Below, one piece after another: positions 3,955 through 21,484 of a stretch of 33,224 bases of DNA. The notes under the pieces are model-generated. The model worked only from the letters and a program-made list of their open reading frames with translations, searched no databases and was not told the origin of the DNA. The position numbers and the translations under genes were made by a program. Origin of the DNA: an uncultured candidatus Brocadiaceae bacterium (GTDB lineage Bacteria > Planctomycetota > UBA1135 > UBA2386); the NCBI GenBank assembly GCA_964392555.1, contig CAYMRG010000001.1, positions 19,842 to 53,065 of the forward strand. The letters run 5' to 3'. Each line of letters starts with the position of its first letter. The first letter of the stretch is position 1.

Positions 3955-4956
3955 ATGCCACACCTCACCCGCATCGTCACGTTCGCCGCCATCGCAGCAT
4001 TCGGCCTCCCGATCGCCGCTCAAGACCAGCCCGGCCGCAAAGCGCCGCCGGTCTACGACGAGGCGGCCGATGCCAAGCAGCTCGTCGCCGACGCGCTCGC
4101 CAAGGCGAAGCACGAGAACCAGCGCGTCCTGATCCAGTGGGGCGCCAACTGGTGCGGCTGGTGTGTTCGCCTCGCCGACGTGATGAAGAAGGACCGCACC
4201 GTCGCGCACGAGCTGCTCTACGAATATCGGCTCGTGCACGTCGACGTCGGCCACTTCGACAAGCACAAGGACCTCGCCAAGTCGCTCGGTGCGGAGTTCC
4301 AGGCGATCCCGTTCCTGACGATCCTCGACGCCGACGGCAAGCCGTTGGCGCAGCAGAACACCGAGCCGTTCGAGAACGGCAACGATGCGAAGGTCAGCCA
4401 CGACGCGACCAAGCTGCTCGCCTTCCTGAAGCAGTACGAGGCAAAGCCGCTGGTTGCCGAGGAGGTCCACGCCGCCGGCCTCGCCGCGGCGAAGGAACAG
4501 CAGAAGCGCCTGTTCCTGCACTTCGGCGCGCCGTGGTGCGGCTGGTGCCACCGCCTCGAGGACTGGATGGCGCGCCCCGAGATCGCGGCGCTGCTGGCGA
4601 AGGACTTCGTCGACGTCAAGGTCGACATCGACCGCATGACCGGCGGCAAGGAGCTCTACAACAAGCTGCTCGCGGCCGCGGGCGCCAAGGAGAGTGGCAT
4701 CCCGTGGTTCGTGTTCGAGGGCAAGGACGGCAAGCTGCTCGCGCACAGTGACGGCAAGGACGGCACGATCGGCTTCCCCTACCAACCCGATGAGGTCGCG
4801 GGTTTCGTCGAGATGCTGCAGGCCGCGCGCGTGAACCTCACCGACGCGGACATCGCGGCGCTGCGCAAGTCGCTCGACGACAACCGCGAGCAGACCGAGG
4901 CGCAGAAGCAGGCAGCTCGGCCCGCGGCGGCCAAGCCCGCCGAAGCCACGCGGTGA
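3955..4956 (+). CDS. Secreted tandem thioredoxin-fold protein (two WCGWC domains)
   Basis: Signal peptide MPHLTRIVTFAAIAAFGLPIAAQ. Two thioredoxin-like halves, each with WCGWC (nt 4150-4164 and 4534-4548). Confidence 0.85.
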   Translation: MPHLTRIVTFAAIAAFGLPIAAQDQPGRKAPPVYDEAADAKQLVADALAKAKHENQRVLIQWGANWCGWCVRLADVMKKDRTVAHELLYEYRLVHVDVGHFDKHKDLAKSLGAEFQAIPFLTILDADGKPLAQQNTEPFENGNDAKVSHDATKLLAFLKQYEAKPLVAEEVHAAGLAAAKEQQKRLFLHFGAPWCGWCHRLEDWMARPEIAALLAKDFVDVKVDIDRMTGGKELYNKLLAAAGAKESGIPWFVFEGKDGKLLAHSDGKDGTIGFPYQPDEVAGFVEMLQAARVNLTDADIAALRKSLDDNREQTEAQKQAARPAAAKPAEATR

Positions 4957-4986
4957 GGCGGCTCGCCCGGAGGGCGACCCGCCTCA
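4954..4986 (+). terminator. Strong GC-rich hairpin starting at the stop codon of the thioredoxin gene (no U-tract)
   Basis: TGAGGCGG-C-TCGCCC-GGA-GGGCGA-C-CCGCCTCA gives 8 + 6 bp interrupted by one C/C mismatch. Confidence 0.45.
4957..4979 (+). repeat. Copy 1 of a 23-nt direct repeat GGCGGCTCGCCCGRAGGGCGRCC (hairpin-forming, REP-like)
   Basis: ggcggctcgcccggagggcgacc matches 5065-5087 at 21/23 positions. Both copies lie in the same 179-nt intergenic region. Confidence 0.6.
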
Positions 4987-5012
4987 GCCATCTTCACGAC
5001 GCCGCTACGCGG

Positions 5013-5039
5013 GGAACTTCATCCGCGGGGATCATCGCA
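5013..5039 (+). promoter_or_regulatory. Candidate ECF (sigmaE-like) promoter upstream of the HtrA-type protease gene (GGAACTT-N15-TCGCA)
   Basis: GGAAC at 5013-5017 (GGAACTT through 5019), a 17-nt spacer after the pentamer, then TCGCA at 5035-5039, about 97 nt upstream of ATG 5136. It lies between two CGCGGGGA direct repeats (5008-5015 and 5024-5031). Confidence 0.3.
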
Positions 5040-5064
5040 GCCAGCCCCGCGGCGGCGTCTGTTG

Positions 5065-5087
5065 GGCGGCTCGCCCGAAGGGCGGCC
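5065..5087 (+). repeat. Copy 2 of the 23-nt direct repeat GGCGGCTCGCCCGRAGGGCGRCC
   Basis: ggcggctcgcccgaagggcggcc. Contains a CGCCC-GAA-GGGCG hairpin. Confidence 0.6.
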
Positions 5088-5135
5088 AGGCGCGCCCCTT
5101 TCGCGACCGCGGCGCCCGGCCTAGAGCGCTCGGCC

Positions 5136-6068
5136 ATGAGCATGCTGAGGTCGCTGTCCGATGAGATCGCTGCCGTCGTCGCGCGCGTTCGCCCCGCCGT
5201 CTTGCACCTGCGCGCCGTGCAGCGCGGCACCGGTCGCAACGGCACCGGTTCGGGCTTCGTGATCGCCGGCGACCTCGCGCTGACCAACAGCCACGTCGTC
5301 CACGACACGGTCGCGGTCGAGGCGACGTTCCACGACGGCCGCACCGCCTATGTCGACGTGCTCGGCACGGACCCGACGACCGACCTCGCGTTGCTGCGCG
5401 TGCCCGAGCCGGGCACCGAACCGCTCGAACTGGTCGACGCCAACGACCTGCGCGTCGGCGACTTCGCGCTCGCGGTCGGCTGTCCGCACGGCCTGTCGCA
5501 CTCGGTGACCGCTGGCATCATCAGCGGCCTCGGTCGCGCGCTGCCGGGCCCCGGCGGGCGGTCGATCGAAGACGTCATCCAGACCGACGCGCCGCTGAAC
5601 CCCGGCAACTCAGGTGGTCCGCTGCTCGACGCCGACGGCCGCGTCGTCGGCATCGCGACCGCGATCGTGCCGATGGCCCAGGGACTGTGCTTCGCCGTGC
5701 CGGCGAACACCGCACAGGTGGTCGTGCCCGAGCTGCGCGACCACGGCCGCGTCGTGCGCGGCTGGCTCGGCGTCGGCGTGCACGGCGTCGAGATCGCGCC
5801 GACGATCGCCCGCCGCCTCGGCCTGCCGTCGCCGCGCGCTCTGGCCGTCGCCGAGGTCACGCCGGGCTCGCCCGCGCAGCGCGCCGGCGTGCAGCAGGGC
5901 GACCTGCTGCTGTCGCTCGACGAACGCACGATCCGCGGTGCCGGCGACCTGATGGCCGGCCTGCTGCGCCACGCGATCGGCCGCGAACTGCAGCTGCGGC
6001 TGCTTCGGCACAACGAGATCCTGCGCACGGTGGTGACGCCAGCGGCGGCGCCGCGCGCGGCGGCGTGA
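5136..6068 (+). CDS. HtrA/DegP-family trypsin-like serine protease with one C-terminal PDZ domain
   Basis: Catalytic triad context TNSHVV, DLALLRV, GNSGGPLLD. PDZ-like EVTPGSPAQRAGVQQGDLLLSLD. I chose ATG 5136 (MSMLRSLSDEIA...) rather than the GTG at 4953, because that extension runs through the hairpin/repeat region and is Arg/Ala-rich. Confidence 0.85.
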   Translation: MSMLRSLSDEIAAVVARVRPAVLHLRAVQRGTGRNGTGSGFVIAGDLALTNSHVVHDTVAVEATFHDGRTAYVDVLGTDPTTDLALLRVPEPGTEPLELVDANDLRVGDFALAVGCPHGLSHSVTAGIISGLGRALPGPGGRSIEDVIQTDAPLNPGNSGGPLLDADGRVVGIATAIVPMAQGLCFAVPANTAQVVVPELRDHGRVVRGWLGVGVHGVEIAPTIARRLGLPSPRALAVAEVTPGSPAQRAGVQQGDLLLSLDERTIRGAGDLMAGLLRHAIGRELQLRLLRHNEILRTVVTPAAAPRAAA

Positions 6069-6096: not shown

Positions 6097-7560
6097 TCAG
6101 ATCGAGTCCCGCCACTCGCGAACGAGTTGCTCCACGGTCTGCTCGAGCCACGACTCGAACTCGACCCCGACCTCGGCATAGGACTGGGCCAAGGTCATCA
6201 AGAATGGCCGCTTGCACGCGATACGTGCAGCAACCGGTCGATCCGTCGAATCGGGGCCGAGCAGCACGAAGAAGGCATTGACTGCGATGACTGGATTGCG
6301 CACCACGAAATGGACGGACACAGCCATTTCCGCTGTGTTGCCAGCGGATGCCGCAAGATCGACCCTACGGATCTTCAGTACCGAATGGATCGCCGGCCGC
6401 GAGACGTCGACCTCGTAGCCCAAGGTTCTGGCCACAGCGACAACCTCCGAGATGCGCCCGCTCGCTTCGACATGTGAATGGACGGGCAGCCCGCTTTGGT
6501 CGAAGTCCCTCTTGAGGCTCTCGAACCGGGAATGCACGCGGTTGCCAATCGCGTGAGCGTAGCCATGAAGATCCTCTGGCAAGCCTGACTGGCTTGCCAG
6601 ACGCCACCTTGCCTCTTCGATGATCGAAGAAACCCCACTCATCGAACCCTGGGACCGCAGGGGAAGCTGAAGGACACGCAAGATGTGGAGTCGTTGCAGG
6701 TCGCGAAACAGCTCAACCAATGGTCGCAAGTTGCCGGCGTCTGCATTCTCCAGAGCTTGTATGTAGGCAACGCGGTTGTCGCGAGACACGATGAGCGGAA
6801 GAGACCCGGCCCGTAGAAACACCAACGTTGCGAGAGCTCTGGCGACCCTGCCGTTTCCGTCCTGGAACGGATGGATCTGCGTGAACCGGTGGTGAAGCCA
6901 CGCGGCCTCGATGTCGAACGGCACACCGGCGCCCATGTGCTGCGAGTGCATCTCCAGCAGCCTCTCCATTTCCTGCGCAACGTGGACTGGTGGGCAGTAC
7001 TCATGCACTGCGCGGCCCGTTCCAACGTCGGCGGGATCGTTTGGCAGCGTCTTCCAGTCGCCCTTCACAACCGAAACCATGACGCAGTTTCCCTGACTGT
7101 CGATCGCCTCGGCGGCATCCTGGTGGCGCAGCAGCACCTGGTGCAACTCCTTCACGTAGGATGAGGTCAGCACGCGCTTGCGCGAAACGAACGCAAACAG
7201 CCCTTCCGCGGCTTCCTTGTGGTCATCGAGGATCGTCAGCAACTTCCCCGCTGGAAGGTCGCTGTCGCCGTGACCGATCATCGCAGCGTCGAAGCCCTGT
7301 TCCACCAAGGTCCGAGTTACGCCTTCGTCCAAGGTGTAGATCCGCTCGAGAATCCCCGTCTCGATGCTCCAACTGCGAACGAGCCGGGCGATGAACTCCG
7401 CCACCAACGCCTGCCCTTCCTGGGTGGACTCCAATTCGTGGCGCTTCAGCAACCACTGGTCGAGAAGTGCCTGGGTCTCGGTGGAGTGCCACTGCCGCCA
7501 ACCTGACGGCAGGTCTTCGATGGGAGTCCAACGGTGACCACGCTTCCTAGCCGCGCTCAT
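6097..7560 (-). CDS. fic: Fic/DOC-family protein (AMPylase-type active site) with an uncharacterised ~190-aa C-terminal extension
   Basis: Canonical Fic motif HPFQDGNGRVAR at nt 6838-6873. Fic_N-like SWSIETGILERIY at the N-terminus. GC and codon usage are clearly lower than in the neighbouring genes. Confidence 0.9.
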   Translation of the reverse strand: MSAARKRGHRWTPIEDLPSGWRQWHSTETQALLDQWLLKRHELESTQEGQALVAEFIARLVRSWSIETGILERIYTLDEGVTRTLVEQGFDAAMIGHGDSDLPAGKLLTILDDHKEAAEGLFAFVSRKRVLTSSYVKELHQVLLRHQDAAEAIDSQGNCVMVSVVKGDWKTLPNDPADVGTGRAVHEYCPPVHVAQEMERLLEMHSQHMGAGVPFDIEAAWLHHRFTQIHPFQDGNGRVARALATLVFLRAGSLPLIVSRDNRVAYIQALENADAGNLRPLVELFRDLQRLHILRVLQLPLRSQGSMSGVSSIIEEARWRLASQSGLPEDLHGYAHAIGNRVHSRFESLKRDFDQSGLPVHSHVEASGRISEVVAVARTLGYEVDVSRPAIHSVLKIRRVDLAASAGNTAEMAVSVHFVVRNPVIAVNAFFVLLGPDSTDRPVAARIACKRPFLMTLAQSYAEVGVEFESWLEQTVEQLVREWRDSI

Positions 7561-7706
7561 GCCACAACAAGCCTACCCAGAACTGCTATGGACGAAATGG
7601 CACTGCGGATCGACCGTTCGCGACATGTGCCATTCGCGTCCCGCCGGGCCGCGCAGCGATGCGGCCGCGTAGGGCCCGTGGTATCCCTTCCGCCCGGAGA
7701 TCGAAC

Positions 7707-8519
7707 ATGAAGCTCGCCACATCCCTCACGCTGCTCGCCGCGTTCGCGAACAACGCCTTCGCCCAGGAACCCGCGAAGGAGCCGCCGAAGCCGGCTCCCG
7801 CCGAGAAGCCGGCCGACCCGACGACGGGCAAGCCGACCGGTGACAAACCAGCCACCGACCAGCCCAAGCCCGACCAGGGCGCGCCGAAGGTGCTGCAGCT
7901 CGGCCAGCGCCTCGACGGCAACGTGACGCTGCTCGACATCGACGGCAAGTCGCAGAAGGCCCACGACCTGATGGGCACGGTCACCGTCGTCAGCTTCTAC
8001 TCGATCCAGTGCCCGGTCCAGGCCGCCTGGGATCGCCGCCTCGCCGACATCCAGAAGGATTTCGCGGCGCAGGGCGTGACCTTCCTGCACATCGACAGCA
8101 ACGTCACCGAGATCGGTGCCGAGCCGACGAAGGCCGAGGGCGACGCGAAGCCGTATGCGAACATCCGCGACCACCTGAAGGCGAAGGATCTGCCGTTCCG
8201 CGTATTCGTCGACCACGGCAACAAGGTGGCGGACCTGTTCGACGCGAAGACCACGCCGCATGTCTACGTGTTCGGCAAGGATGGTCGGCTCGTCTACCGG
8301 GGCCTCGTCGACGACGACCAGAAGGACCGCAACCAGGAAGGCCGCACCAACCACCTGCGCGACGTGCTCGGCAAGCTGCTGAAGGACGAGAAGGTCGAGC
8401 CGTTCGCGACCAAGGAGCAAGGCTGCTCGATCAAGCGCGTCGACGCCGGCGGGCGCGGCCAGGGTCGCCGCAACGGCGGACCCGGTCGTCGACCGCGCGG
8501 CGAGGGCAATGGCCAGTAG
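7707..8519 (+). CDS. Secreted redoxin/AhpC-TSA-like thioredoxin-fold protein (1-Cys CPVQ variant) with a Pro/Lys-rich N-terminal linker
   Basis: GGAGA lies 6 nt upstream of ATG 7707. Signal peptide MKLATSLTLLAAFANNAFAQ. VVSFYSIQCPVQAAW sits at the CxxC position, and the C-terminal GCSIKR is typical of this redoxin subgroup. Confidence 0.75.
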   Translation: MKLATSLTLLAAFANNAFAQEPAKEPPKPAPAEKPADPTTGKPTGDKPATDQPKPDQGAPKVLQLGQRLDGNVTLLDIDGKSQKAHDLMGTVTVVSFYSIQCPVQAAWDRRLADIQKDFAAQGVTFLHIDSNVTEIGAEPTKAEGDAKPYANIRDHLKAKDLPFRVFVDHGNKVADLFDAKTTPHVYVFGKDGRLVYRGLVDDDQKDRNQEGRTNHLRDVLGKLLKDEKVEPFATKEQGCSIKRVDAGGRGQGRRNGGPGRRPRGEGNGQ

Positions 8520-9123: not shown

Positions 9124-11802
9124 ATGCACGCCAGGTCGAACTCGCCCAGGATCACCGTTCCCGCCGCGCTCGCGACCGCGCTGGTCGCGCTGCTGACCTT
9201 CGCCGCCTGCGGCGGCAGCGGCGGCAACGTGTCGGTCGGGCCGCGCGCGCCGACGTCGGTGCAGTATTCGACCAACCCGGTGGTCTACACGGTCGACGTG
9301 GCGATCCCCGCCAACGTGCCGACGGTGTCGGGCGCGGCGGCGACGTCGTTCACGGTCGACCCGTCGCTGCCGGCCGGGCTCGCGCTCGATCCGACGACCG
9401 GCAACGTGTCGGGCACACCCACGCAGGTGTCGACCGCGACGAACTACACGGTGACCGCCGCCAACGACCACGGCAGCGCTTCGGTCCAGCTCGAGATCCG
9501 CGTCGCGCCGCTCGCGATCGCGATCACCACGCAGCCGACCGCCCAGAACGTCCACGTCGGTGACACCGCGACCTTCCACGTCGTGGTCGCCGCCACCGGC
9601 ACGATCACCTACCAGTGGCAGCGCAACGGCCTGCCGATCCCCGGCGCGAACCTCGCCGACTACACGACGCCGGTGCTCGCGCACGGCGACGACGCGGTCT
9701 ACTCGGTCGCGGCCAACGATGCCTACGGTGGCTCGGTGACCAGCGACCACGTGCAGCTCGTGGTGACCGTCGGCTCGTTCACGGCCGGCCCGAGCCTGCA
9801 GCACGGTCGCTTCGACCACTCGGCGTCGCCGCTGCCGAACGGCCGGATCCTGCTGGCCGGCGGCACCGACGTCGTCGCGCTGGCGACTGCCGAGATCCTC
9901 GATCCGTTCACCGCGACGACCGCGGCGACGGCGAGCATGACCGAGGCACGCACGCAACATCGCGCGACGGCGCTCGCCGACGGCGCCGTGCTGGTGACCG
10001 GTGGCGGCACCAACGTGCTGTTCTCACTGCCGCTGACGATCTCGGCGACCGCCGAGACGTTCGACGCGGCGACCGGCGCGTGGACCGCGACGACCGGCGT
10101 CATGACGAGCCCGCGCGCGCAGCACTCGGCGACGCGCCTGCCGAACGGCAAGGTGTTGATCGCCGGCGGCACCAACGGCAGCGGCGCGGTCGCGACCGCC
10201 GAACTGTTCGATCCGGCGACGCGCACGTTCACGGCGACGGGCGCCATGGCGAGCGCCCGCCAGGCCCACACGGCCACGCTGCTGCCGAACGGCAAGGTGC
10301 TGGTCACCGGCGGCCTGTTGGGCCTGACGTCGGTCGCCAGCGCCGAGCTCTACGACCCCGCCTCGGGCACGTTCACCACCGCCGCGGCGATGACCACGGC
10401 GCGCAGCCGCCACGCCGCCGCCATGCTGCCCGACGGCCGCGTGCTGATCGCCGGCGGCAGCGACCTGATCGCCCCGGGCATCGCGTCGGCCGAGACCTTC
10501 GACCCGGCGACGGCGACGTTCACGGCCACCGATTCGCTCGGCGCCGGCCACGCGCAACCGATCCTCGCGGCGATGCCCAACGGCAAGCTGCTGCTCGCCG
10601 GCGGCACGCTGAACGGCACGCCGGTGGTGCAGGCGGAGGTCTACGACGCGGCCAGCGCGACGTTCGGCCGCACCGGCGACACCCTCGTCGCGCGCACCGG
10701 CACGACCGCGTCGCTGCTGCCCGACGGCAAGGTCCTGCTCGTCGGCGGCGCGAACGGCAACGTCGGCATCGCCACGACCGAGATCTACGACGCCGAGGAC
10801 GTCGTGCCCGAGCAGTTCACGGCGACCGGCAGCATGGCGACCGCGCGCGTGTCGGCCACGTTCACGTTGCTGCCCGACGGCCGCGTGCTCGCGGTCGGCG
10901 GTGCGGGTTCGGCCTCGGCCGAGGTGTACTCGCCCGCGAACGGCACCTGGAGCGCAACCACCGGTGCGCCGACGACCGCGCGCAGCGAACACACCGCGAC
11001 GCTGCTGCCGAACGGCAAGGTCCTGCTCGTCGGCGGCACCAACGGCACCACGGAGCTGGCGACCGCCGAACTGTTCGATCCGGCGACCGGTTCGTTCACC
11101 GCGACCACCGGCAGCCTCGGCGCCGCACGCCGCGGCCACACCGCGACGCTGCTCGGCAACGGCCAGGTGCTGGTCGCCGGCGGCGTCGCCAGTGCGACCG
11201 GCCTCGCGTCGGCCGAACTCTACGACCCGACGACCCAGACCTTCGCCGCGACGGGCGCGCTCAACGCGGCGCGGTCCGCGTTCACGGCGACGCTGCTCGG
11301 CAACGGCCAGGTGCTCGTCGTCGGCGGCTACGCCAGCGGCATCGTCGCCTCGGCCGAACTCTACGACCCGACGAGCGGCACGTTCGCGACCACTGGCGCG
11401 CCGACGACCGATGTCTACACGCACGCCGCGGTGCGGTTGCCCGACGGCCGCGTGCTGATCGTCGGCGGGCTCGCCGGTTCGGGCCCCTCGTCCGACGCAT
11501 TCACCTTCGACCCCGCGACCGGCACGTTCAGCGCGAGCGGCGGCATGAGCCATGCCCGCACCTACCCGCAGGCGTGCCTGCTGCCCGACGGCCGCGTGCT
11601 CGCCTCCGGCGGCTTCGCTTCACCGACCGAGCACCTGGTCGGCGAGCTGTTCGATCCGGCGGCCGGGACCTGGTCCGACACCGGCGCGGCGACCGCGGTG
11701 CACATCCGCACCGGCGCCGTGCTGCTCCGGACCGGCGCGGTGCTGATCGCGGGCGGCGTTTCGGGCGTGACGGCGCTCGCGAGCTGCGATCTCTACCGCT
11801 GA
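9124..11802 (+). CDS. Lipoprotein with two N-terminal Ig-like domains and 14 Kelch-type beta-propeller repeats
   Basis: Lipobox LTFAAC. Ig-like segments (...LPAGLALDPTTGNVSGTP...; TYQWQRNGLPIPGA). Then 14 repeats of aRxxHTATLLPNGKVLvaGG. Confidence 0.85.
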   Translation: MHARSNSPRITVPAALATALVALLTFAACGGSGGNVSVGPRAPTSVQYSTNPVVYTVDVAIPANVPTVSGAAATSFTVDPSLPAGLALDPTTGNVSGTPTQVSTATNYTVTAANDHGSASVQLEIRVAPLAIAITTQPTAQNVHVGDTATFHVVVAATGTITYQWQRNGLPIPGANLADYTTPVLAHGDDAVYSVAANDAYGGSVTSDHVQLVVTVGSFTAGPSLQHGRFDHSASPLPNGRILLAGGTDVVALATAEILDPFTATTAATASMTEARTQHRATALADGAVLVTGGGTNVLFSLPLTISATAETFDAATGAWTATTGVMTSPRAQHSATRLPNGKVLIAGGTNGSGAVATAELFDPATRTFTATGAMASARQAHTATLLPNGKVLVTGGLLGLTSVASAELYDPASGTFTTAAAMTTARSRHAAAMLPDGRVLIAGGSDLIAPGIASAETFDPATATFTATDSLGAGHAQPILAAMPNGKLLLAGGTLNGTPVVQAEVYDAASATFGRTGDTLVARTGTTASLLPDGKVLLVGGANGNVGIATTEIYDAEDVVPEQFTATGSMATARVSATFTLLPDGRVLAVGGAGSASAEVYSPANGTWSATTGAPTTARSEHTATLLPNGKVLLVGGTNGTTELATAELFDPATGSFTATTGSLGAARRGHTATLLGNGQVLVAGGVASATGLASAELYDPTTQTFAATGALNAARSAFTATLLGNGQVLVVGGYASGIVASAELYDPTSGTFATTGAPTTDVYTHAAVRLPDGRVLIVGGLAGSGPSSDAFTFDPATGTFSASGGMSHARTYPQACLLPDGRVLASGGFASPTEHLVGELFDPAAGTWSDTGAATAVHIRTGAVLLRTGAVLIAGGVSGVTALASCDLYR
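9775..11799 (+). repeat. Array of 14 Kelch-like coding repeats (about 47-50 codons each)
   Basis: I counted 14 occurrences of the LLP(N/D)G(K/R)VL..GG core in the translation. Confidence 0.8.
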
Positions 11803-14675
11803 GCGCCGGGGCGATCGGCGGCAGCCTTCGGCTTCGGGAGCGACTCGAGGAACTTGACGAAGTTGTCGGTCAGGGCCGAAGGCGTATAGCCATCGGGGAT
11901 CGCCTCACCGAGCTTGTCGCCCGTCTTCGGATCGACGACCACGAACGTCGGCATGCCGCGGCTGACCGCGAGCTGCTTGAACAGCGCCTTGTTGCCCGCG
12001 AACCGCTCCGCGGTGAGGTACTTCTGCAGATCGACGTGCAACCGCACCTCGACGAACCCTTGCTTCAGGATCCCGGCGACCGCCGGGCGCAGGAAGACGT
12101 CGTCTTCCATCGCACGACAGTTCACTCAATTGAACCCGGTGAAGTTGTAGAGCAGCAGCTTGTCCTCGGCCTTCGCGAGCACGAGCGCGCGATCGGGGTC
12201 GTCCTCGACGAGCGTGTGGCCCGCCGCGTGCTCGCTGCCGCCGGCCTTGTCGCCGGTGCCTGCCTGCGCGACCGCGCGCGCGCCGACCATCGGCGCCGAG
12301 TAGGGCGGCGCGAACGCCGTCATGTAGAAGTCGAGCTTGTAGCCGAGCGCGCCGAACAGCAGGTAGGTGGCCAGCAGCACCACCGCCATGCCGGTCGCCA
12401 TGCGCCCGCCGCCGACGCCTTCGTTGGCCGTTCCCGCCTTGCGCAGGATGCCGAACAGGTACATCGCCCACATCACGAAGATCGCTGCGATCAGCAGCAG
12501 GAACAGCTCGCGCGGCAGCGCATTCCAGTCGAGCGCGATGTCGACCATCGACACGAACTTCAGCGTCGCGGCGATCTCGACGAACCCGAGCGAGACCTTC
12601 AGCGTGTCCATCCACTGACCCGAGCGCGGCAGCGCCTTGACCTTGGACGGGGCCAGCGACAGGAACACGAACGGCAGCGCCATCACGAGGCCGAACACGG
12701 TCATGCCGATCGCGACGCGCGCAACTCCTTGCGTCGCGACGCTGCTGATCAGCGTGCCGACGATCGGCGCCGTGCAGGTGAAGGAGGTGATCACCAGCGC
12801 CGCGCCCATGAAGAACACGCCGAGCACACCACCGCTGCCGCTCGCCGTGGTCGCGACGTCCTGGAGGAATCGCGGCGGCTGCAGATCGATCCAACCGAAC
12901 AGCGAGAACGCGAACAGCAGGAAGACGATTCCGATCACCGCATTGGTGATCCAGTGGTTGGCGACGGCGAGGATCACCCCCGACATCAGCACGCCGACGA
13001 TCACGAACATCAGCACGATGCCGAAGCCGTAGACCAGCGCCAGCGACATCACGTTGCCGCCGCGCTTCTCGGCCTGCTTCGTGAAGAAGCTGAACGTGAT
13101 CGGAATCATCGGGTAGGTGCACGGCATCGCGAGGGCGAACAGCGCGCCGCCGACACACGCGAGGATCAGCCCCCACAGCGACAGCCCAGCGGGGTTGCCG
13201 GCCGTGCCGCCGCCGGCGACGACCACCGCTTCGTTCGCCTTCGGCCCGCCGCCCATCGGGGCGGCACCTTCGCGAACCCCCTTCTCGACCGCGACCTTCG
13301 CCGCGAACGCGACGTCCTCCGGTGGCTGGCACTGGAACTTCTCGTCGCACACCTGCACGCGCAGCGTGCCCTTGACCTCGACCTCGCCCGGCGCGTGGCC
13401 GACCGGCGCGCGCAGCCGCTGCGTCACCTGGAACTTGTCCGGCAGCGGATACGAGGTGCCGACGATGCCTTCGCGCGCGGTGCCAGGCGGCACGTTCGCG
13501 TCGCCGTCGGTCTCGAGTCCACCGAGCGTCAGCTTCTTCGCATCCAGCAGGACCGGCAGGTTGATCGGCTCGCGGCTGCCGTAGGCGTGGTAGCCCTTGG
13601 CGATCTCGACGTCCAGCACGAGCGTCGCGCTCTCGCCTTCGTGGACGTTCGCCGGCTCGAAGCTCGCTTTGACGGTGATCGTCTTGCCCTTCGTGTCGGG
13701 CAGCAGATTCGCGTCGGGTAAGAGCTTGAGGCCGGGCTTGGTCTCGCCGCCACCCGCGACGATCTCGAACGTCGCCGTGAACGGTGCGCCGTCCGGCGGC
13801 AGGCACGATGACTCGTCGCAGATCTGGTAGTCGAGCGCGCCGCTGAGTTCGACCTTGCCGGGCTTCGCGCCGGCGGGCACGCGCAGCTTCTGCGTCACCT
13901 CGAAGCGGTTCGGCAGCGGATACTGCGTCATGCCCATGTGCTCGTGCGGCTCGCCGGGCGGCACCATCGCGCCGCCGTCGGCCTCGAGCCCGCCCAGCTT
14001 GGCCTTGCCGGCGTCGAACGCGACCGGAATGTTGGTCGTCTCGCTGCTGCCGTAGGCGTGGAACGCGTCGTCGACGACCGCCTCGATGTGCAGCACGACG
14101 GTCTCGCCGGGCTTGCCGACCTTCGGCACGCACGTCGCGCGCACCGAGACCTTCTCGCCTTGCTTCAGCTGCAGCGGCTCGGCGCGCGCCGGGCCCGCGC
14201 CCGCGACCTTCAGCACGACCGCGAACTTCGCATCGTCGGGCGGCAGGCACATGTTCGCGTCGCAGATCTGGTAGCGCAGCGCCCCCTCGATCTTGACGTC
14301 GCCGGCCGCGGCACCGGCCGGCACGCGCAGCGACTGCGTCACGACGAACGTCTCGGGCAGTGGATACTGCGTGCCCAGCGGGCCGCTCTTGGCGTTGCCG
14401 GGCGGGATCACCGGATCGCCGTCGAGCACGAGCGGCGCCACCTTCAGCGTGTCCGCCGGCAGTTCGATCGGGATGTTGACCGTCTCCTTGGTGCCGTAGG
14501 CGTGCCAGCCTTCGCTGACGGTCGCCGTCAGCACGAGCTTGACGGTGTCGCCGGGTTTGGCCGTCGACGGTTCGAGCGTCGCCTGCAGCGACAGCGAACC
14601 GTCCTGCGCGCGCAGGCCGCAGATGGCCGCGCACAGGGCGATCAGGAACGTGAGCCAGCGGGATCGGGCTTCCAT
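11793..14675 (-). CDS. dsbD: DsbD-family thiol:disulfide electron transporter: signal peptide, 3 x DsbD-alpha-like domains, CcdA/DsbD-beta membrane core, and a thioredoxin-like gamma domain. It is read through an in-frame TGA (predicted selenocysteine, UxxC).
   Basis: Track ORFs 12126..14813 and 11793..12125 are in the same frame and separated only by TGA 12126-12128. The junction reads LLLYNFTGFN-TGA-VNCRAMEDDVF, where a DsbD gamma domain has ..WCxxC. A cis-Pro GMPTFVVVD lies downstream. Membrane-core Cys motifs are AMPCTYPMIP and SFTCTAPIVG. I chose start M47 (MEARSRWLTFLIALCAAICGLRAQ, ATG 14675-14673). A conventional annotation would split this into 12126..14675 plus 11793..12125. Confidence 0.7.
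12092..12108 (-). promoter_or_regulatory. Candidate bacterial SECIS hairpin (GGAAGAC-GAC-GUCUUCC)
   Basis: Perfect 7-bp stem starting 18 nt after the UGA. The apical loop starts with G, 24 nt after the UGA, inside the usual SECIS distance range. A second hairpin, CCCGGC-GGUC-GCCGGG, lies at 12072-12087. Confidence 0.45.
12126..12128 (-). other. In-frame TGA, predicted selenocysteine codon (first position of the UVNC redox motif)
   Basis: Minus-strand reading: AAT(N) TGA GTG(V) AAC(N) TGT(C). Confidence 0.6.
13287..14594 (-). repeat. Three tandem DsbD-alpha-like domain-coding repeats (about 130 codons each: 14205-14594, 13758-14153, 13287-13682)
   Basis: Each unit has (W/F/Y)HAYG....N(I/L)P......PPG....G(T)(Q/S)YPLP..F.VTQ.LR.P.G...G.V...G.L..Q(I/V)CD...C(L/Q)PP. 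Confidence 0.8.
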
Positions 14676-14827
14676 CGGGGCGGGGATGATACGAGGCCGC
14701 GGCCATTCGGCACGCGGGCCGGCGAATTGTCCCGCGGGCCGTCCGGGCGCGACCGGTCCGGCGCGACGGCGGAAATCGCGCCGGGTCAGTACCCTTTCCC
14801 GAACCCACGGCACTCACCCACCAGCCC

Positions 14828-15373
14828 ATGAGCGCCACCGCATTGCCCCACCAGGAGCCGGAGCCTTCGCTCGCCGACGCCTTCGTTCGCCGCCATCAGG
14901 TCGGACTGTGGCGCTGGCTGCGCGTCCTCGGCTGCACGGCCGACCGGGCCGAAGAGCACTGCCAGGACGCCTTCCTCGCCGCGCTGCACCTCGGGGTCGA
15001 TCGCTGGGCAGCCGGGGCCGCGAGTGCCTGGCTGCGCACGGCCGCGAAGAACCTGTTCCTGATGCAGCTGCGCGCCGAGCGCCGCCGGCCGCGCTGGACC
15101 TCGCTCGACGACGTCGAGGCGAGCTGGACGGCGGCCGGCGGCGAGACGGACGGCGGCGACGCGGCGCTGCGCGCGCTCGACGAGTGCCTGCGTGCGCTGC
15201 CGCCGCGCGACCACGACCTCGTGATGCGTCGCTACCGCGACCGCGAACCGCGCGCCGTGACGGCGCAGCAGCTCGGCCTTGGCGAGGCAGGGGTCAAGCA
15301 GGCGCTGCGCCGCGCGCGCGAGCGGCTGCGGATCTGCCTCGGCATCCGCATTCGGCCCACGACCCATCCATGA
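14828..15373 (+). CDS. ECF-family RNA polymerase sigma factor (paralog 2)
   Basis: 181 aa. GLWRWLRVLGCTADRAEEHCQDAF parallels sigma 1. Region 4 HTH is TAQQLGLGEAGVKQALRRARERLRICL. Divergent from the dsbD-like gene. Confidence 0.85.
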   Translation: MSATALPHQEPEPSLADAFVRRHQVGLWRWLRVLGCTADRAEEHCQDAFLAALHLGVDRWAAGAASAWLRTAAKNLFLMQLRAERRRPRWTSLDDVEASWTAAGGETDGGDAALRALDECLRALPPRDHDLVMRRYRDREPRAVTAQQLGLGEAGVKQALRRARERLRICLGIRIRPTTHP

Positions 15374-15385
15374 CATGAGGGAACG

Positions 15386-16654
15386 ATGATCGACGACGCC
15401 AACCAGGACGAGTTCACGGACGCCCACGCGGTGGTCGACGCCTTGCTGCAGGAGCGGCTCGGCGGCGAACTGCCGCACGATCTCGCCACCGCGATTGCCA
15501 CCCGCCGGCTGCGCGGCGAAGGCAAGGCGGCCGCCCGCGCCTGCACGGTGGCGGCGCGGCCCGCGGCCAGCGGCCAGCGCTGGCTGGTCGCGGCGATCAT
15601 GCTGCTGGCGATCGGCGCCGTCGTCGGCGCGCAGTGGTGGCGTCGCGCCGAGGCGACCGCGGGCGCGACGGCGCCAACGCTGCCGGTCACCGCGCCGGAG
15701 CAAGATCCCCAGCCGGCCGGCGAGAACGGCGTGCTGCAGCTGCGCGTGCTCGACGACCACGGTGCGCCGGTGCCTTCGTTCACGCTGACGATGTTGCGCG
15801 TGTTCGACGCCGCGCCGGGCCGCTACGGCCGCGTCCCCGAGGTGCCCGACCGCACTGTGCGATTCTACGACGACGCCGGGGGCTTCGTGCGGGTCCGCGA
15901 CCTGCCGGCCGGCCGCTACGCAGTGCGGGTGCAGTCGGATGACTACGCGGGCACACTCTCCGAGCCGTTCACGATGCCGGCGGCGGACCAGCCTGGCCCC
16001 GTCATCACGGTGCGGCTCACGCTCGGCAGCGAACTGGCGGGCATCGTCACCGGTCCCGGCGGCAAACCCGTGGCCGGCGCCGAGGTCCGCACGGTCGACA
16101 GCGCGATGATCGGCACGCCGCCGGGTTCCCTGTTCGCGAAACTGCGCGAGGCGATGCCCGTCGTCGTGACCCAGACCAGCGCGCGCACCGACGCCGAGGG
16201 GCGCTACCGCCTGCGCCGCCTGAGCAAGGGCAGCTACGGCCTCGTCGTCGACCATCCCGACTTCTGCCGCTTCGAACGCAAGGACCTCGCGATCCCTGCC
16301 GACCCGGCGAAGCTCGACGTCGCGCTAGCCGACGGCACCCGCATCTCGGGCACCCTGCGAGATGGCGACGGCCCCGTGGCCGATGTCGACGTCACGCTGA
16401 TGCTCGCCGGCGAACCGACCGTGACAGGCCCCATCAGCTTCCCGCCGACCTGGATCGCGCGAACGGACGCCCAGGGGCGCTTCACGTTCGCGGTGCGCAT
16501 CCCGCCCGGCAAATACCGCATGTCGAGCACCGGCAAGGTCACCGGCAAGGAAGCGCCGTTCGACCTGATGCGGCGGGCGAAGAGCAGCGAGGTCGAGTTC
16601 GTCGTCGAGCCCGGCAAGAAGGAGCTCGAGCAGGCGATGACGATCCAGCAGTGA
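15386..16654 (+). CDS. Single-pass membrane anti-sigma-like protein with CarboxypepD_reg-like (carboxypeptidase regulatory-like) extracytoplasmic domains
   Basis: GAGGGA lies upstream of ATG 15386, 12 nt after the sigma stop. TM helix WLVAAIMLLAIGAVVGAQWW. Repeated segments such as LAGIVTGPGGKPVAGAEVRT...TDAEGRYRLRRLSKGSYGL and ISGTLRDGDGPVADVDVTL...TDAQGRFTF. Confidence 0.65.
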   Translation: MIDDANQDEFTDAHAVVDALLQERLGGELPHDLATAIATRRLRGEGKAAARACTVAARPAASGQRWLVAAIMLLAIGAVVGAQWWRRAEATAGATAPTLPVTAPEQDPQPAGENGVLQLRVLDDHGAPVPSFTLTMLRVFDAAPGRYGRVPEVPDRTVRFYDDAGGFVRVRDLPAGRYAVRVQSDDYAGTLSEPFTMPAADQPGPVITVRLTLGSELAGIVTGPGGKPVAGAEVRTVDSAMIGTPPGSLFAKLREAMPVVVTQTSARTDAEGRYRLRRLSKGSYGLVVDHPDFCRFERKDLAIPADPAKLDVALADGTRISGTLRDGDGPVADVDVTLMLAGEPTVTGPISFPPTWIARTDAQGRFTFAVRIPPGKYRMSSTGKVTGKEAPFDLMRRAKSSEVEFVVEPGKKELEQAMTIQQ

Positions 16655-20356: not shown

Positions 20357-21484
20357 ATGTGCTGCATTACGCCGGCGAGGTTCCCGGTGGTGGCGATCCT
20401 GGGCCCACGCCAGGTCGGCAAGACGACGCTCTCCCGCCAGTATGCGGACACCGTCGCCGGGGCGGTCCACACCTTCGACCTCCAGCGCGCCGCCGACCTG
20501 CGCGCGCTGCAGGACCCGATGCTCGCGCTCGAAGACCTGCGGGGCCTGGTGATCCTCGACGAGGTGCAGCGCCTGCCCGACGTGTTCTCGACCTTGCGCG
20601 TGCTCGCCGACCGGCCACGTCGTCCTGCCCGCTTCCTCGTGCTCGGCAGCGCTTCCGCCGAATTGCTGCGCCAGAGTTCGGAGACCCTCGCCGGTCGCAT
20701 CGCCTACCTGCACCTGACGGGCTTCCTGCCGGTCGAGGTCCCGCCGGCGCAGTTCGATCGCCTGTGGCTGCGCGGCGGCTTTCCCCGCTCGTTCCTGGCC
20801 CGCTCCGACGCCGCCAGCTTCACCTGGCGCGAAGAGTTCGTGACGACCTTCCTCGAACGCGATCTGCCCCAGCTCGGCTTTCGCACGCCGGCCGCGACGC
20901 TGCGCCGCTTCTGGAGCATGTTGGCGCATGCGCATGGCCAGATCTGGAACGCGTCGGATTTCGCACGCTCGCTGTCGGTCAGCAACCACACCACGCGTCA
21001 CTACCTCGACCTGCTGGCCTCGACGCTCGTCGTGCGCGTACTGCCCCCCTTCCACGAGAACCTGCAGAAGCGCCAGGTGAAGTCGCCCAAGGCCTACCTG
21101 GCCGACACGGGGCTGCTGCACACGCTGCTCGGCATCGCCACCGTTCGCGACCTGCGCGGCCACAGCAAGGCGGGCGCCTCGTTCGAGGGACTCGGCATCC
21201 AGGCCGTCGTCGAGCACCTGGGCGCAAGGCCGCACGAATGCCACTTCTGGGCCACGCACTCGGGCGCCGAGCTCGATCTCCTGGTGGTGCGCGGTCGCCG
21301 ACGCCTCGGCTTCGAGTTCAAGCTCGGCTCGGCCCCGGACGCCACCGCGTCGATGCACACGGCGTTGCGCGACCTGAAGCTGCAGAAGCTCTGGGTGATC
21401 CACGCCGGCAAGGACCGCTACAAGCTGACGCCCGGCATCGAAGCGATCCCGATCCACCGCCTGCGGGACATTCCCGGGCTGTGA
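20357..21484 (+). CDS. AAA-type ATPase with a DUF4143-like C-terminal domain (COG1373-like)
   Basis: Walker A GPRQVGKTTL. C-terminal FWATHSGAELDLLVVRGRRRLGFEFK pattern. The start is uncertain (see findings). Confidence 0.8.
   Translation: MCCITPARFPVVAILGPRQVGKTTLSRQYADTVAGAVHTFDLQRAADLRALQDPMLALEDLRGLVILDEVQRLPDVFSTLRVLADRPRRPARFLVLGSASAELLRQSSETLAGRIAYLHLTGFLPVEVPPAQFDRLWLRGGFPRSFLARSDAASFTWREEFVTTFLERDLPQLGFRTPAATLRRFWSMLAHAHGQIWNASDFARSLSVSNHTTRHYLDLLASTLVVRVLPPFHENLQKRQVKSPKAYLADTGLLHTLLGIATVRDLRGHSKAGASFEGLGIQAVVEHLGARPHECHFWATHSGAELDLLVVRGRRRLGFEFKLGSAPDATASMHTALRDLKLQKLWVIHAGKDRYKLTPGIEAIPIHRLRDIPGL

Follow-up and report, generated by a model that had tools for sequence, protein, structure and literature searches.

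A DsbD-family gene with one in-frame TGA

The minus strand of a 33,224-nucleotide (nt) stretch of DNA from an uncultured candidatus Brocadiaceae bacterium (contig CAYMRG010000001.1; this whole stretch is called the window below) carries a gene of the DsbD family whose reading frame is broken by a single TGA. The gene appears as an open reading frame (ORF) of 895 codons (12126..14813), which closes with KLLLYNFTGFN and is followed by TGA at 12128-12126. Beyond this codon the same frame continues with VNCRAMEDDVFLRPAVAG...GMPTFVVVD... up to a TAG at 11795-11793. A preliminary description of the sequence had joined the ORF of 895 amino acids (aa) and the 110-aa ORF behind it into one recoded protein of about 960 aa, in which the TGA would encode selenocysteine (Sec). 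The two ORFs do share one frame on the minus strand, with only this TGA between them. The true start is likely the ATG at 14675, which opens a signal-peptide-like N-terminus (MEARSRW...), and the read-through product then amounts to 849 + 1 + 110 = 960 aa.

The window has a G+C content of 71%. Third-position G+C (GC3) is 0.94 on one side of the TGA and 0.90 on the other, values typical of coding sequence, and no other in-frame TGA in the window has coding-like flanks on both sides except one ordinary gene junction. A scan of the window and 15 related loci for in-frame TGA codons with coding-like flanks gave no convincing second recoded gene. Genome-wide reassignment of TGA was considered as well and rejected. 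Most coding-like ORFs of the window terminate at TGA, and a change of the code is excluded because TGA is the usual stop there. On the opposite strand, a gene at 9124-11802 (+) converges on the DsbD gene and encodes a protein of 892 aa that has Kelch repeats and a He_PIG domain; the final codons of this gene share positions 11793-11802 with the end of the DsbD frame. Owing to the high G+C content, the strands opposite the DsbD and Kelch genes also hold ORFs of up to 1368 aa (for example 9615-13721, plus strand); they are spurious and are not genes.

The domains of the predicted protein, called Sec-DsbD below, follow one another in the order of three PF11412 (DsbD_N) matches, one PF02683 (DsbD) match and one PF13899 (Thioredoxin_7) match, the last of which extends across the TGA. 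The PF11412 match comprises three stretches (E = 1.1e-23, the best stretch being residues 343-455), and PF02683 covers residues 503-709 (E = 3.1e-22). PF13899 covers residues 825-916 with 27.0 bits, right at its cut-off, and PF13098 reaches 25.7 bits, just short of its cut-off of 27. In the membrane (beta) domain about eight hydrophobic segments were counted by eye. The thioredoxin-like (gamma) domain also matches the sequence of a solved thioredoxin-fold protein, PDB 3f9u, which aligns DFTGYGCVNCRKME to NFTGFN-U-VNCRAME (E = 1.5e-8). In a gammaproteobacterial DsbD (P0115), WCVDC and GPP align with U-VNC and GMP. The earlier proposal, made by comparison with E. coli DsbD, that the TGA falls on the first cysteine (Cys) of the gamma CxxC motif is thus upheld by the span of Thioredoxin_7, by the solved structure and by P0115, and the second Cys and cis-Pro columns line up in P0115 as had been claimed.

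A DsbD_N domain with a Cys pair, a DsbD/CcdA membrane domain with two Cys and a thioredoxin fold with a UxxC motif are all found in the predicted protein. The NCBIfam model NF001419 (protein-disulfide reductase DsbD) matches residues 430-918 with 118 bits, below its cut-off of 330. Judged by its predicted domains, the protein is a member of the DsbD family and not an equivalog of E. coli DsbD. Very probably, the locus holds a single gene for a transmembrane disulfide reductase of the DsbD type that faces the periplasm and in which Sec takes the place of the first, attacking Cys of the gamma CxxC motif.

TGA and Cys codons at one position among the homologues

The homologue set consists of 117 proteins, nearly all from metagenome-assembled genomes (MAGs) of Planctomycetota and 45-62% identical. 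Related DNA was taken from species-representative genomes, from metagenomes and from the surroundings of selected proteins. The gene calls of 97 of the 117 homologues stop exactly one residue before the Sec codon, at NFTGFN, NFTGFT, NLTGFN, DFTGYN or a similar end. In the related DNA there are 30 loci with TGA at this codon, which come from independent metagenomes and MAGs (45-66% protein identity). All 30 of these Sec forms continue for 85-121 more in-frame codons, which encode the rest of the conserved thioredoxin domain. Their motif has the consensus U-[VIGNATK]-[NSTV]-C-R, and the alignment contains invariant residues downstream of the UGA through the cis-Pro motif. The second residue of the motif, Cys853, is likely the resolving Cys.

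Other members of the family have a Cys codon in the same column. In 64 Bacteroidota-type loci it is TGC or TGT, within the motif DFTGF[NS]CVNCR, and four Planctomycetota relatives likewise carry TGC or TGT; the full-length Planctomycetota relatives have TGC, in NFTGFTCTNCR. Of the two residues that the preliminary description had suggested looking for in homologues, Cys is found at this position and Sec is predicted there. An in-frame UGA aligned with the Cys of homologues and coding conservation 3′ of it are both present, and such a comparative pattern is the standard signature by which selenoproteins are predicted in silico. It argues strongly for the insertion of Sec at the UGA 12128-12126.

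A Cys codon, TGC or TGT, lies only one base away from TGA, and a single changed base would suffice to produce the interruption, be it in a pseudogene or by misreading. Nevertheless, the same TGA recurs at the 30 loci, at the level of protein divergence given above, and its recurrence in different assemblies means that it is not a sequencing error. The frame downstream is intact, with a coding-like GC3 of 0.88-0.90, and a protein from another assembly (P0001) is the identical 849-aa gene call. A pseudogene or an assembly error is, of all explanations considered, the one with practically no probability left, and it can be regarded as effectively refuted already.

The gene callers read the locus as two genes, and they do so everywhere: an ORF of 93 aa lies past the stop in L093, and ORFs of 80-94 aa in L094-L096. 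Under this reading a gamma-less DsbD would end at the TGA, and a small thioredoxin-like protein would start at the adjacent GTG or at a Met six codons on. The GTG directly after the TGA of the window, pointed out in the preliminary description, would suit such a start. However, the remainder after the stop has only the second Cys of the redox motif (xxC), as had been noted there, and a product begun at the Met would have none. It would also lack a signal peptide, yet its domain, which comes after the last of the approximately eight membrane helices, must act in the periplasm. GTG follows the TGA in some Sec forms, but in most of them the next codon is not a start codon (ATC, GGC, AAC, ACT, GCG or AAG). 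In all 30 loci the downstream part keeps its frame and its place with respect to the stop, a constancy that independent genes would not need, and the full-length Cys forms have the fused architecture. Homologues that stop at the same place and possess a separate thioredoxin gene with a complete CxxC had been named beforehand as evidence for two genes; the 97 gene calls do stop there, but what follows is never self-sufficient. A fragment without the first redox residue and without a signal peptide disposes of the two-gene reading in practice, and it is given a very low probability. The single recoded gene of the window most likely exists in many Planctomycetota, where it would be mis-annotated as truncated.

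A separate and longer DsbD subfamily is represented by L095 (13001-13003) and L096 (13424-13426), with 1000-1141 aa called and about 98 aa past the stop. It has an internal thioredoxin domain of the Cys type and a C-terminal DFTGYN-TGA-KNC. In its own hairpin the loop is GGA and lies 17 nt after the UGA; the stem, GGACCGU/ACGGUCC in L095 versus GUCUCGU/ACGAGAC in L096, differs between the two loci by three compensated pairs. The subfamily looks like a second Sec-containing DsbD lineage.

mRNA structure and codon choice after the UGA

Two hairpins downstream of the UGA had been put forward as candidate selenocysteine insertion sequence (SECIS) elements, and both lie at the places and distances described for them (Table 1). 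In the bSECISearch model the apical loop is situated about 16-37 nt downstream of the UGA and has a G near its start. The loop of hairpin 1 corresponds to this geometry in the window. Folding of 26 distinct Sec-form sequences, on which the hairpin comparisons are based, indicates that a hairpin of 6-9 base pairs (bp) with a loop starting 17-26 nt past the UGA is possible in 26/26. A hairpin that failed to be kept together with the TGA would have spoken against the recoding; a downstream hairpin occurs instead in every TGA orthologue, with compensatory changes in the divergent ones, as in GGAAAAG/CUUUUCC of L093 and GGAGGAGC/GUUCCUCC of L007. Hairpin 2 has the core CCGGC-GGUC-GCCGG, around which the outer pair varies (C-G, U-A or U-G).

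Both hairpins are absent from the Planctomycetota Cys forms, and the Bacteroidota DsbD-like loci L008-L012 have no hairpin downstream of the Cys codon. Over the 60 nt past the codon, the mean folding z-score against shuffled sequences is -1.76 in Sec forms; the Planctomycetota Cys forms, equal in G+C, give +0.12. An apical loop containing GGU is present in 24/26 Sec forms as compared to 0/4 Cys forms. Its placement differs between lineages: L007, L035 and L093, which have no hairpin 2, have a hairpin 1 whose loop contains AGGU, GGUC or GGUCA, whereas the lineages with hairpin 2 have no GGU there. This complementary placement suggests that the GGU(C) loop is the recognised feature, which in most members, including the window, would lie behind a conserved first hairpin. 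The likeness of the hairpin 2 loop to that of E. coli fdhF, which had been pointed out before, is confirmed in the E. coli genome, where a GGUC apical loop begins 18 nt past the UGA. As to hairpin 1 being the SECIS element itself, its canonical distance and its presence in all sequences agree with that earlier view, but hairpin 2, where synonymous sites are more strongly constrained and the loop resembles that of fdhF, may be the element instead. In the minimum-free-energy fold, moreover, a lower stem extends hairpin 1 and competes with hairpin 2.

The constraint on synonymous codons is visible over codons +7 to +19, where synonymous identity is raised. GAA is preferred within hairpin 1, and in the region of hairpin 2 CGT, GCG, GTC and GCC are favoured at specific sites (Table 1). 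The codon directly 5′ of the UGA (codon -1) also departs from the usage of the family: it ends in A or U (AAT, ACA, ACT or GTT) in 21/24 Sec forms versus 9% elsewhere in the same genes. ACG or ACC is found at this place in Planctomycetota Cys forms, and AAC in L095/L096. The A/U-ending codon may act as a context effect of the ribosomal peptidyl site (P-site) on termination versus Sec insertion.

Several observations weigh against Sec insertion guided by these hairpins. No Rfam SECIS family matches the window at gathering thresholds, nor the interval 11950-12200 at E <= 10, where the sole match, Ms_AS-1 (E = 4.4), is spurious. In 24 codon-aligned sequences, covariation counted over pairs in a fixed register is modest to weak, and RNAalifold gives a weak consensus. 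The weakness of fixed-register covariation is attributable to the low variability of the hairpin region. For this reason, and because of register shifts in the divergent members, folding of individual sequences, the control with Cys forms and the statistics of synonymous codons were used instead. The binomial codon tests treat related sequences as independent, so that their p-values are only a guide.

A further point on the same side concerns the decoding machinery. No selA, selB, selD or tRNA-Sec was found in the window (33 kb) or the related loci (about 0.6 Mb), when ARAGORN was run on the window and all loci and the E. coli SelA and SelB proteins were compared by tblastn with all related DNA. 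An ARAGORN call of a 95-nt 'tRNA-Thr (cgt)' at L006 5783-5877, 4.4 kb upstream of Sec-DsbD, has no Rfam tRNA match; it is probably a false call and is not tRNA-Sec. The Sec-decoding trait of this organism is assumed here. The complete Sec machinery has been documented in several Planctomycetes (PMC4807772).

That the Sec machinery is not among the genes of the window or of the related loci leaves some room for a UGA that is read through without Sec, by a near-cognate Cys or Trp tRNA, or that serves mainly as a selenium-dependent switch between an alpha-beta-only and a full protein. The bias of codon -1 points in the same direction, as it could tune termination versus read-through. Nevertheless, the UGA takes the place of a catalytic Cys in a thioredoxin fold for which Cys homologues exist, the classic Sec/Cys signature, the hairpins downstream bear an fdhF-like GGUC loop, and TGA is a normal stop elsewhere in the window. 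A dual-product role, in turn, would add to Sec insertion and not replace it. Such explanations are considered quite unlikely, and a Sec-containing DsbD is the reading followed in the next section.

Proposed electron path, neighbouring genes and known systems

In the proposed mechanism, SelB would bring Sec-tRNA(Sec) to the UGA 12128-12126 for decoding. The recruitment of SelB would depend on mRNA structure in the coding sequence directly downstream, that is, on hairpin 1 plus, or alternatively on, hairpin 2 with its GGUC loop. If the protein works like E. coli DsbD, the Cys519/Cys634 pair of the membrane domain would be reduced by electrons from cytoplasmic thioredoxin and would in turn reduce the selenenylsulfide between Sec850 and Cys853 in the gamma domain. 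The Sec850 selenolate could then attack the disulfides of the three N-terminal DsbD_N (alpha) domains, from which the reducing equivalents would be handed to clients in the envelope.

In E. coli, Cys461 of the C-terminal domain cDsbD attacks the Cys103-Cys109 disulfide of the N-terminal domain nDsbD (PMC2631958). Cys461 has a pKa of 10.5 in the free gamma domain and is unreactive until nDsbD docks, which is thought to prevent non-specific reoxidation (PMC2631958). E. coli DsbD shares with Sec-DsbD all three kinds of domain and their order, with a redox pair in each, and Sec850 is the equivalent of Cys461 in the alignment via P0115. They differ in that E. coli DsbD has one DsbD_N domain, as opposed to three in tandem, and an attacking Cys (W-C-VAC) in place of Sec (FN-U-VNC). 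A selenol has a pKa of about 5 and is ionised at neutral pH, so that Sec-DsbD presumably cannot use pKa gating of the E. coli type. A natural Sec version at the equivalent of Cys461 is a ready test of the pKa gating model and of the choice of selenium at a membrane electron hub.

A broader reading brings these features together as a large undescribed clade of Planctomycetota with a selenium-dependent DsbD hub and a two-hairpin SECIS whose distal loop is GGUC. In such a clade an always-ionised selenolate would replace the pKa-gated Cys and feed two or three tandem alpha domains. The GGUC loop that binds SelB would be separated from the UGA by about 44 nt, with a conserved spacer hairpin in between, and the selected A/U-ending codon in the P-site would belong to the same recoding signal. 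Taken jointly, these propositions are tentative and rather more doubtful than probable.

The neighbourhood of the gene contains possible partners (Table 1). A secreted protein with two thioredoxin-like domains, an HtrA-like protease and an AhpC/TSA-like protein form a set of genes that is also found beside Cys-form DsbD genes in L097 and L098, which makes their products likely to be clients of the DsbD pathway. The double-thioredoxin and AhpC/TSA-like proteins in particular are likely clients of Sec-DsbD. Divergent from the DsbD gene lies a sigma factor of the extracytoplasmic function (ECF) type at 14828-15373 (+), directly followed by a protein with a CarboxypepD_reg domain at 15386-16654 (+); the two may be a regulatory pair for envelope-stress or redox genes. 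A Fic/DOC-domain protein at 6097-7560 (-) and an AAA_14/DUF4143 ATPase at 20357-21484 (+) are unrelated to Sec-DsbD.

Table 1. Features of the recoded gene, its mRNA and its neighbourhood. Positions are those of the window; codons are numbered from the UGA, and backgrounds refer to the same genes.
Feature	Position	Strand	Basis or remark
Recoded DsbD-family gene, 960 aa	11793..14675	(-)	ATG 14675-14673, Sec codon 12128-12126, TAG 11795-11793; frame continuous but for one TGA
Predicted signal peptide (MEARSRWLTFLIALCAAICGLRA)	14607..14675	(-)	read from sequence by eye
DsbD_N (alpha) domain 1, Cys138/Cys143 (YQICDANMCLPP)	14196..14606, approximate	(-)	PF11412
DsbD_N (alpha) domain 2, Cys286/Cys291 (YQICDESSCLPP)	13686..14153, approximate	(-)	PF11412
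DsbD_N (alpha) domain 3, Cys443/Cys449 (VQVCDEKFQCQPP)	13266..13649	(-)	PF11412, best stretch
DsbD transmembrane (beta) domain, Cys519 (MPCTYP), Cys634 (FTCTAP)	12231..13208	(-)	PF02683
Thioredoxin-like gamma domain, cis-Pro motif GMPTF	11796..12230	(-)	PF13899; spans the Sec codon
AAT codon directly 5′ of the UGA	12129..12131	(-)	A/U-ending, unusual family preference
Predicted Sec, residue 850, first position of U-V-N-C	12126..12128	(-)	also TGA in 30 related loci, TGC/TGT in 64 + four
Cys853, second residue of UxxC	12117..12119	(-)	invariant in alignment
Hairpin 1, GGAAGAC-GAC-GUCUUCC, SECIS candidate	12092..12108	(-)	loop GAC 24 nt after the UGA, the canonical distance
Hairpin 2, CCCGGC-GGUC-GCCGGG	12072..12087	(-)	GGUC apical loop 44 nt after the UGA; in 21/26 Sec forms
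Alternative extended stem-loop, nt 9-49 from the U of the UGA	12080..12120	(-)	minimum-free-energy fold, -27.5 kcal/mol, z = -2.4
GAA (hairpin 1)	codon +7		16/24 at site; background 26-27%
CGT	codon +13		10/14 at site; background 7%
GCG	codon +15		20/21 at site; background 55%
GTC	codon +16		21/23 at site; background 51%
GCC	codon +17		22/22 at site; background 35%
Secreted protein, two thioredoxin-like domains (each WCGWC)	3955-4956	(+)	
HtrA/DegP-like protease with PDZ domain	4953-6068	(+)	
AhpC/TSA- or ResA-like protein, single Cys (IQCPVQ)	7659-8519	(+)	

The consequences for annotation are considerable. About 100 database entries for the family stop short at the Sec codon and are without the catalytic domain; NCBI records under the name 'protein-disulfide reductase DsbD family protein' are among them. 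No NCBIfam selenoprotein model covers the Sec-DsbD family, and a literature search found no publication on a full-length alpha-beta-gamma Sec-DsbD, on a version with several alpha domains or on the Planctomycetota clade. A model built on the family would mend these annotations and would also provide a marker for the use of selenium in Planctomycetota.

Among known SECIS elements, that of E. coli fdhF is likewise a hairpin that lies within the coding region, a short way 3′ of its UGA. Its GGUC loop is that of hairpin 2, and its distance from the UGA is comparable to that of hairpin 1. The difference is that the GGUC loop lies much closer to the UGA in fdhF, whereas in the window it stands behind another conserved hairpin. 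The paired hairpins and the complementary placement of GGU are a testable case for the maximal distance between SECIS and UGA in bacteria.

The closest solved relatives of the gamma domain in the thioredoxin fold are PDB 3f9u, a Bacteroides 'putative exported cytochrome c biogenesis-related protein', and the Bacteroidota loci L008-L012, which have Cys where Sec is predicted here. TsoB (NF045694), a rhodanese/DsbD fusion-like selenoprotein, also has a DsbD transmembrane domain, but it is distinguished by a UxxxxU motif and a rhodanese domain. Membership in this family was rejected, as the protein scores 110 bits against a cut-off of 805, has no rhodanese domain and has the motif UxxC.

Thioredoxin-fold UxxC selenoproteins, including those of the thiol:disulfide interchange type, are a known class, as the preliminary description had stated, and have been catalogued since 2004. 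In that year Kryukov and Gladyshev reportedly described a 'thiol:disulfide interchange protein' selenoprotein family (PF13098, UxxC) from Geobacter and Syntrophus. This family (reference WP_011366075.1) resembles Sec-DsbD in having a thioredoxin-like domain, a UxxC motif and Cys homologues, while the PF13098 score of Sec-DsbD stays just under the cut-off. The model cd02953, presumably the DsbD-gamma model of CDD, would make both the same kind of domain. The published entries of the family come from Deltaproteobacteria (Geobacter, Syntrophus) and from short marine reads, unlike the Planctomycetota genes described here. Sec-DsbD is thus an un-annotated addition to the UxxC selenoproteins already catalogued.

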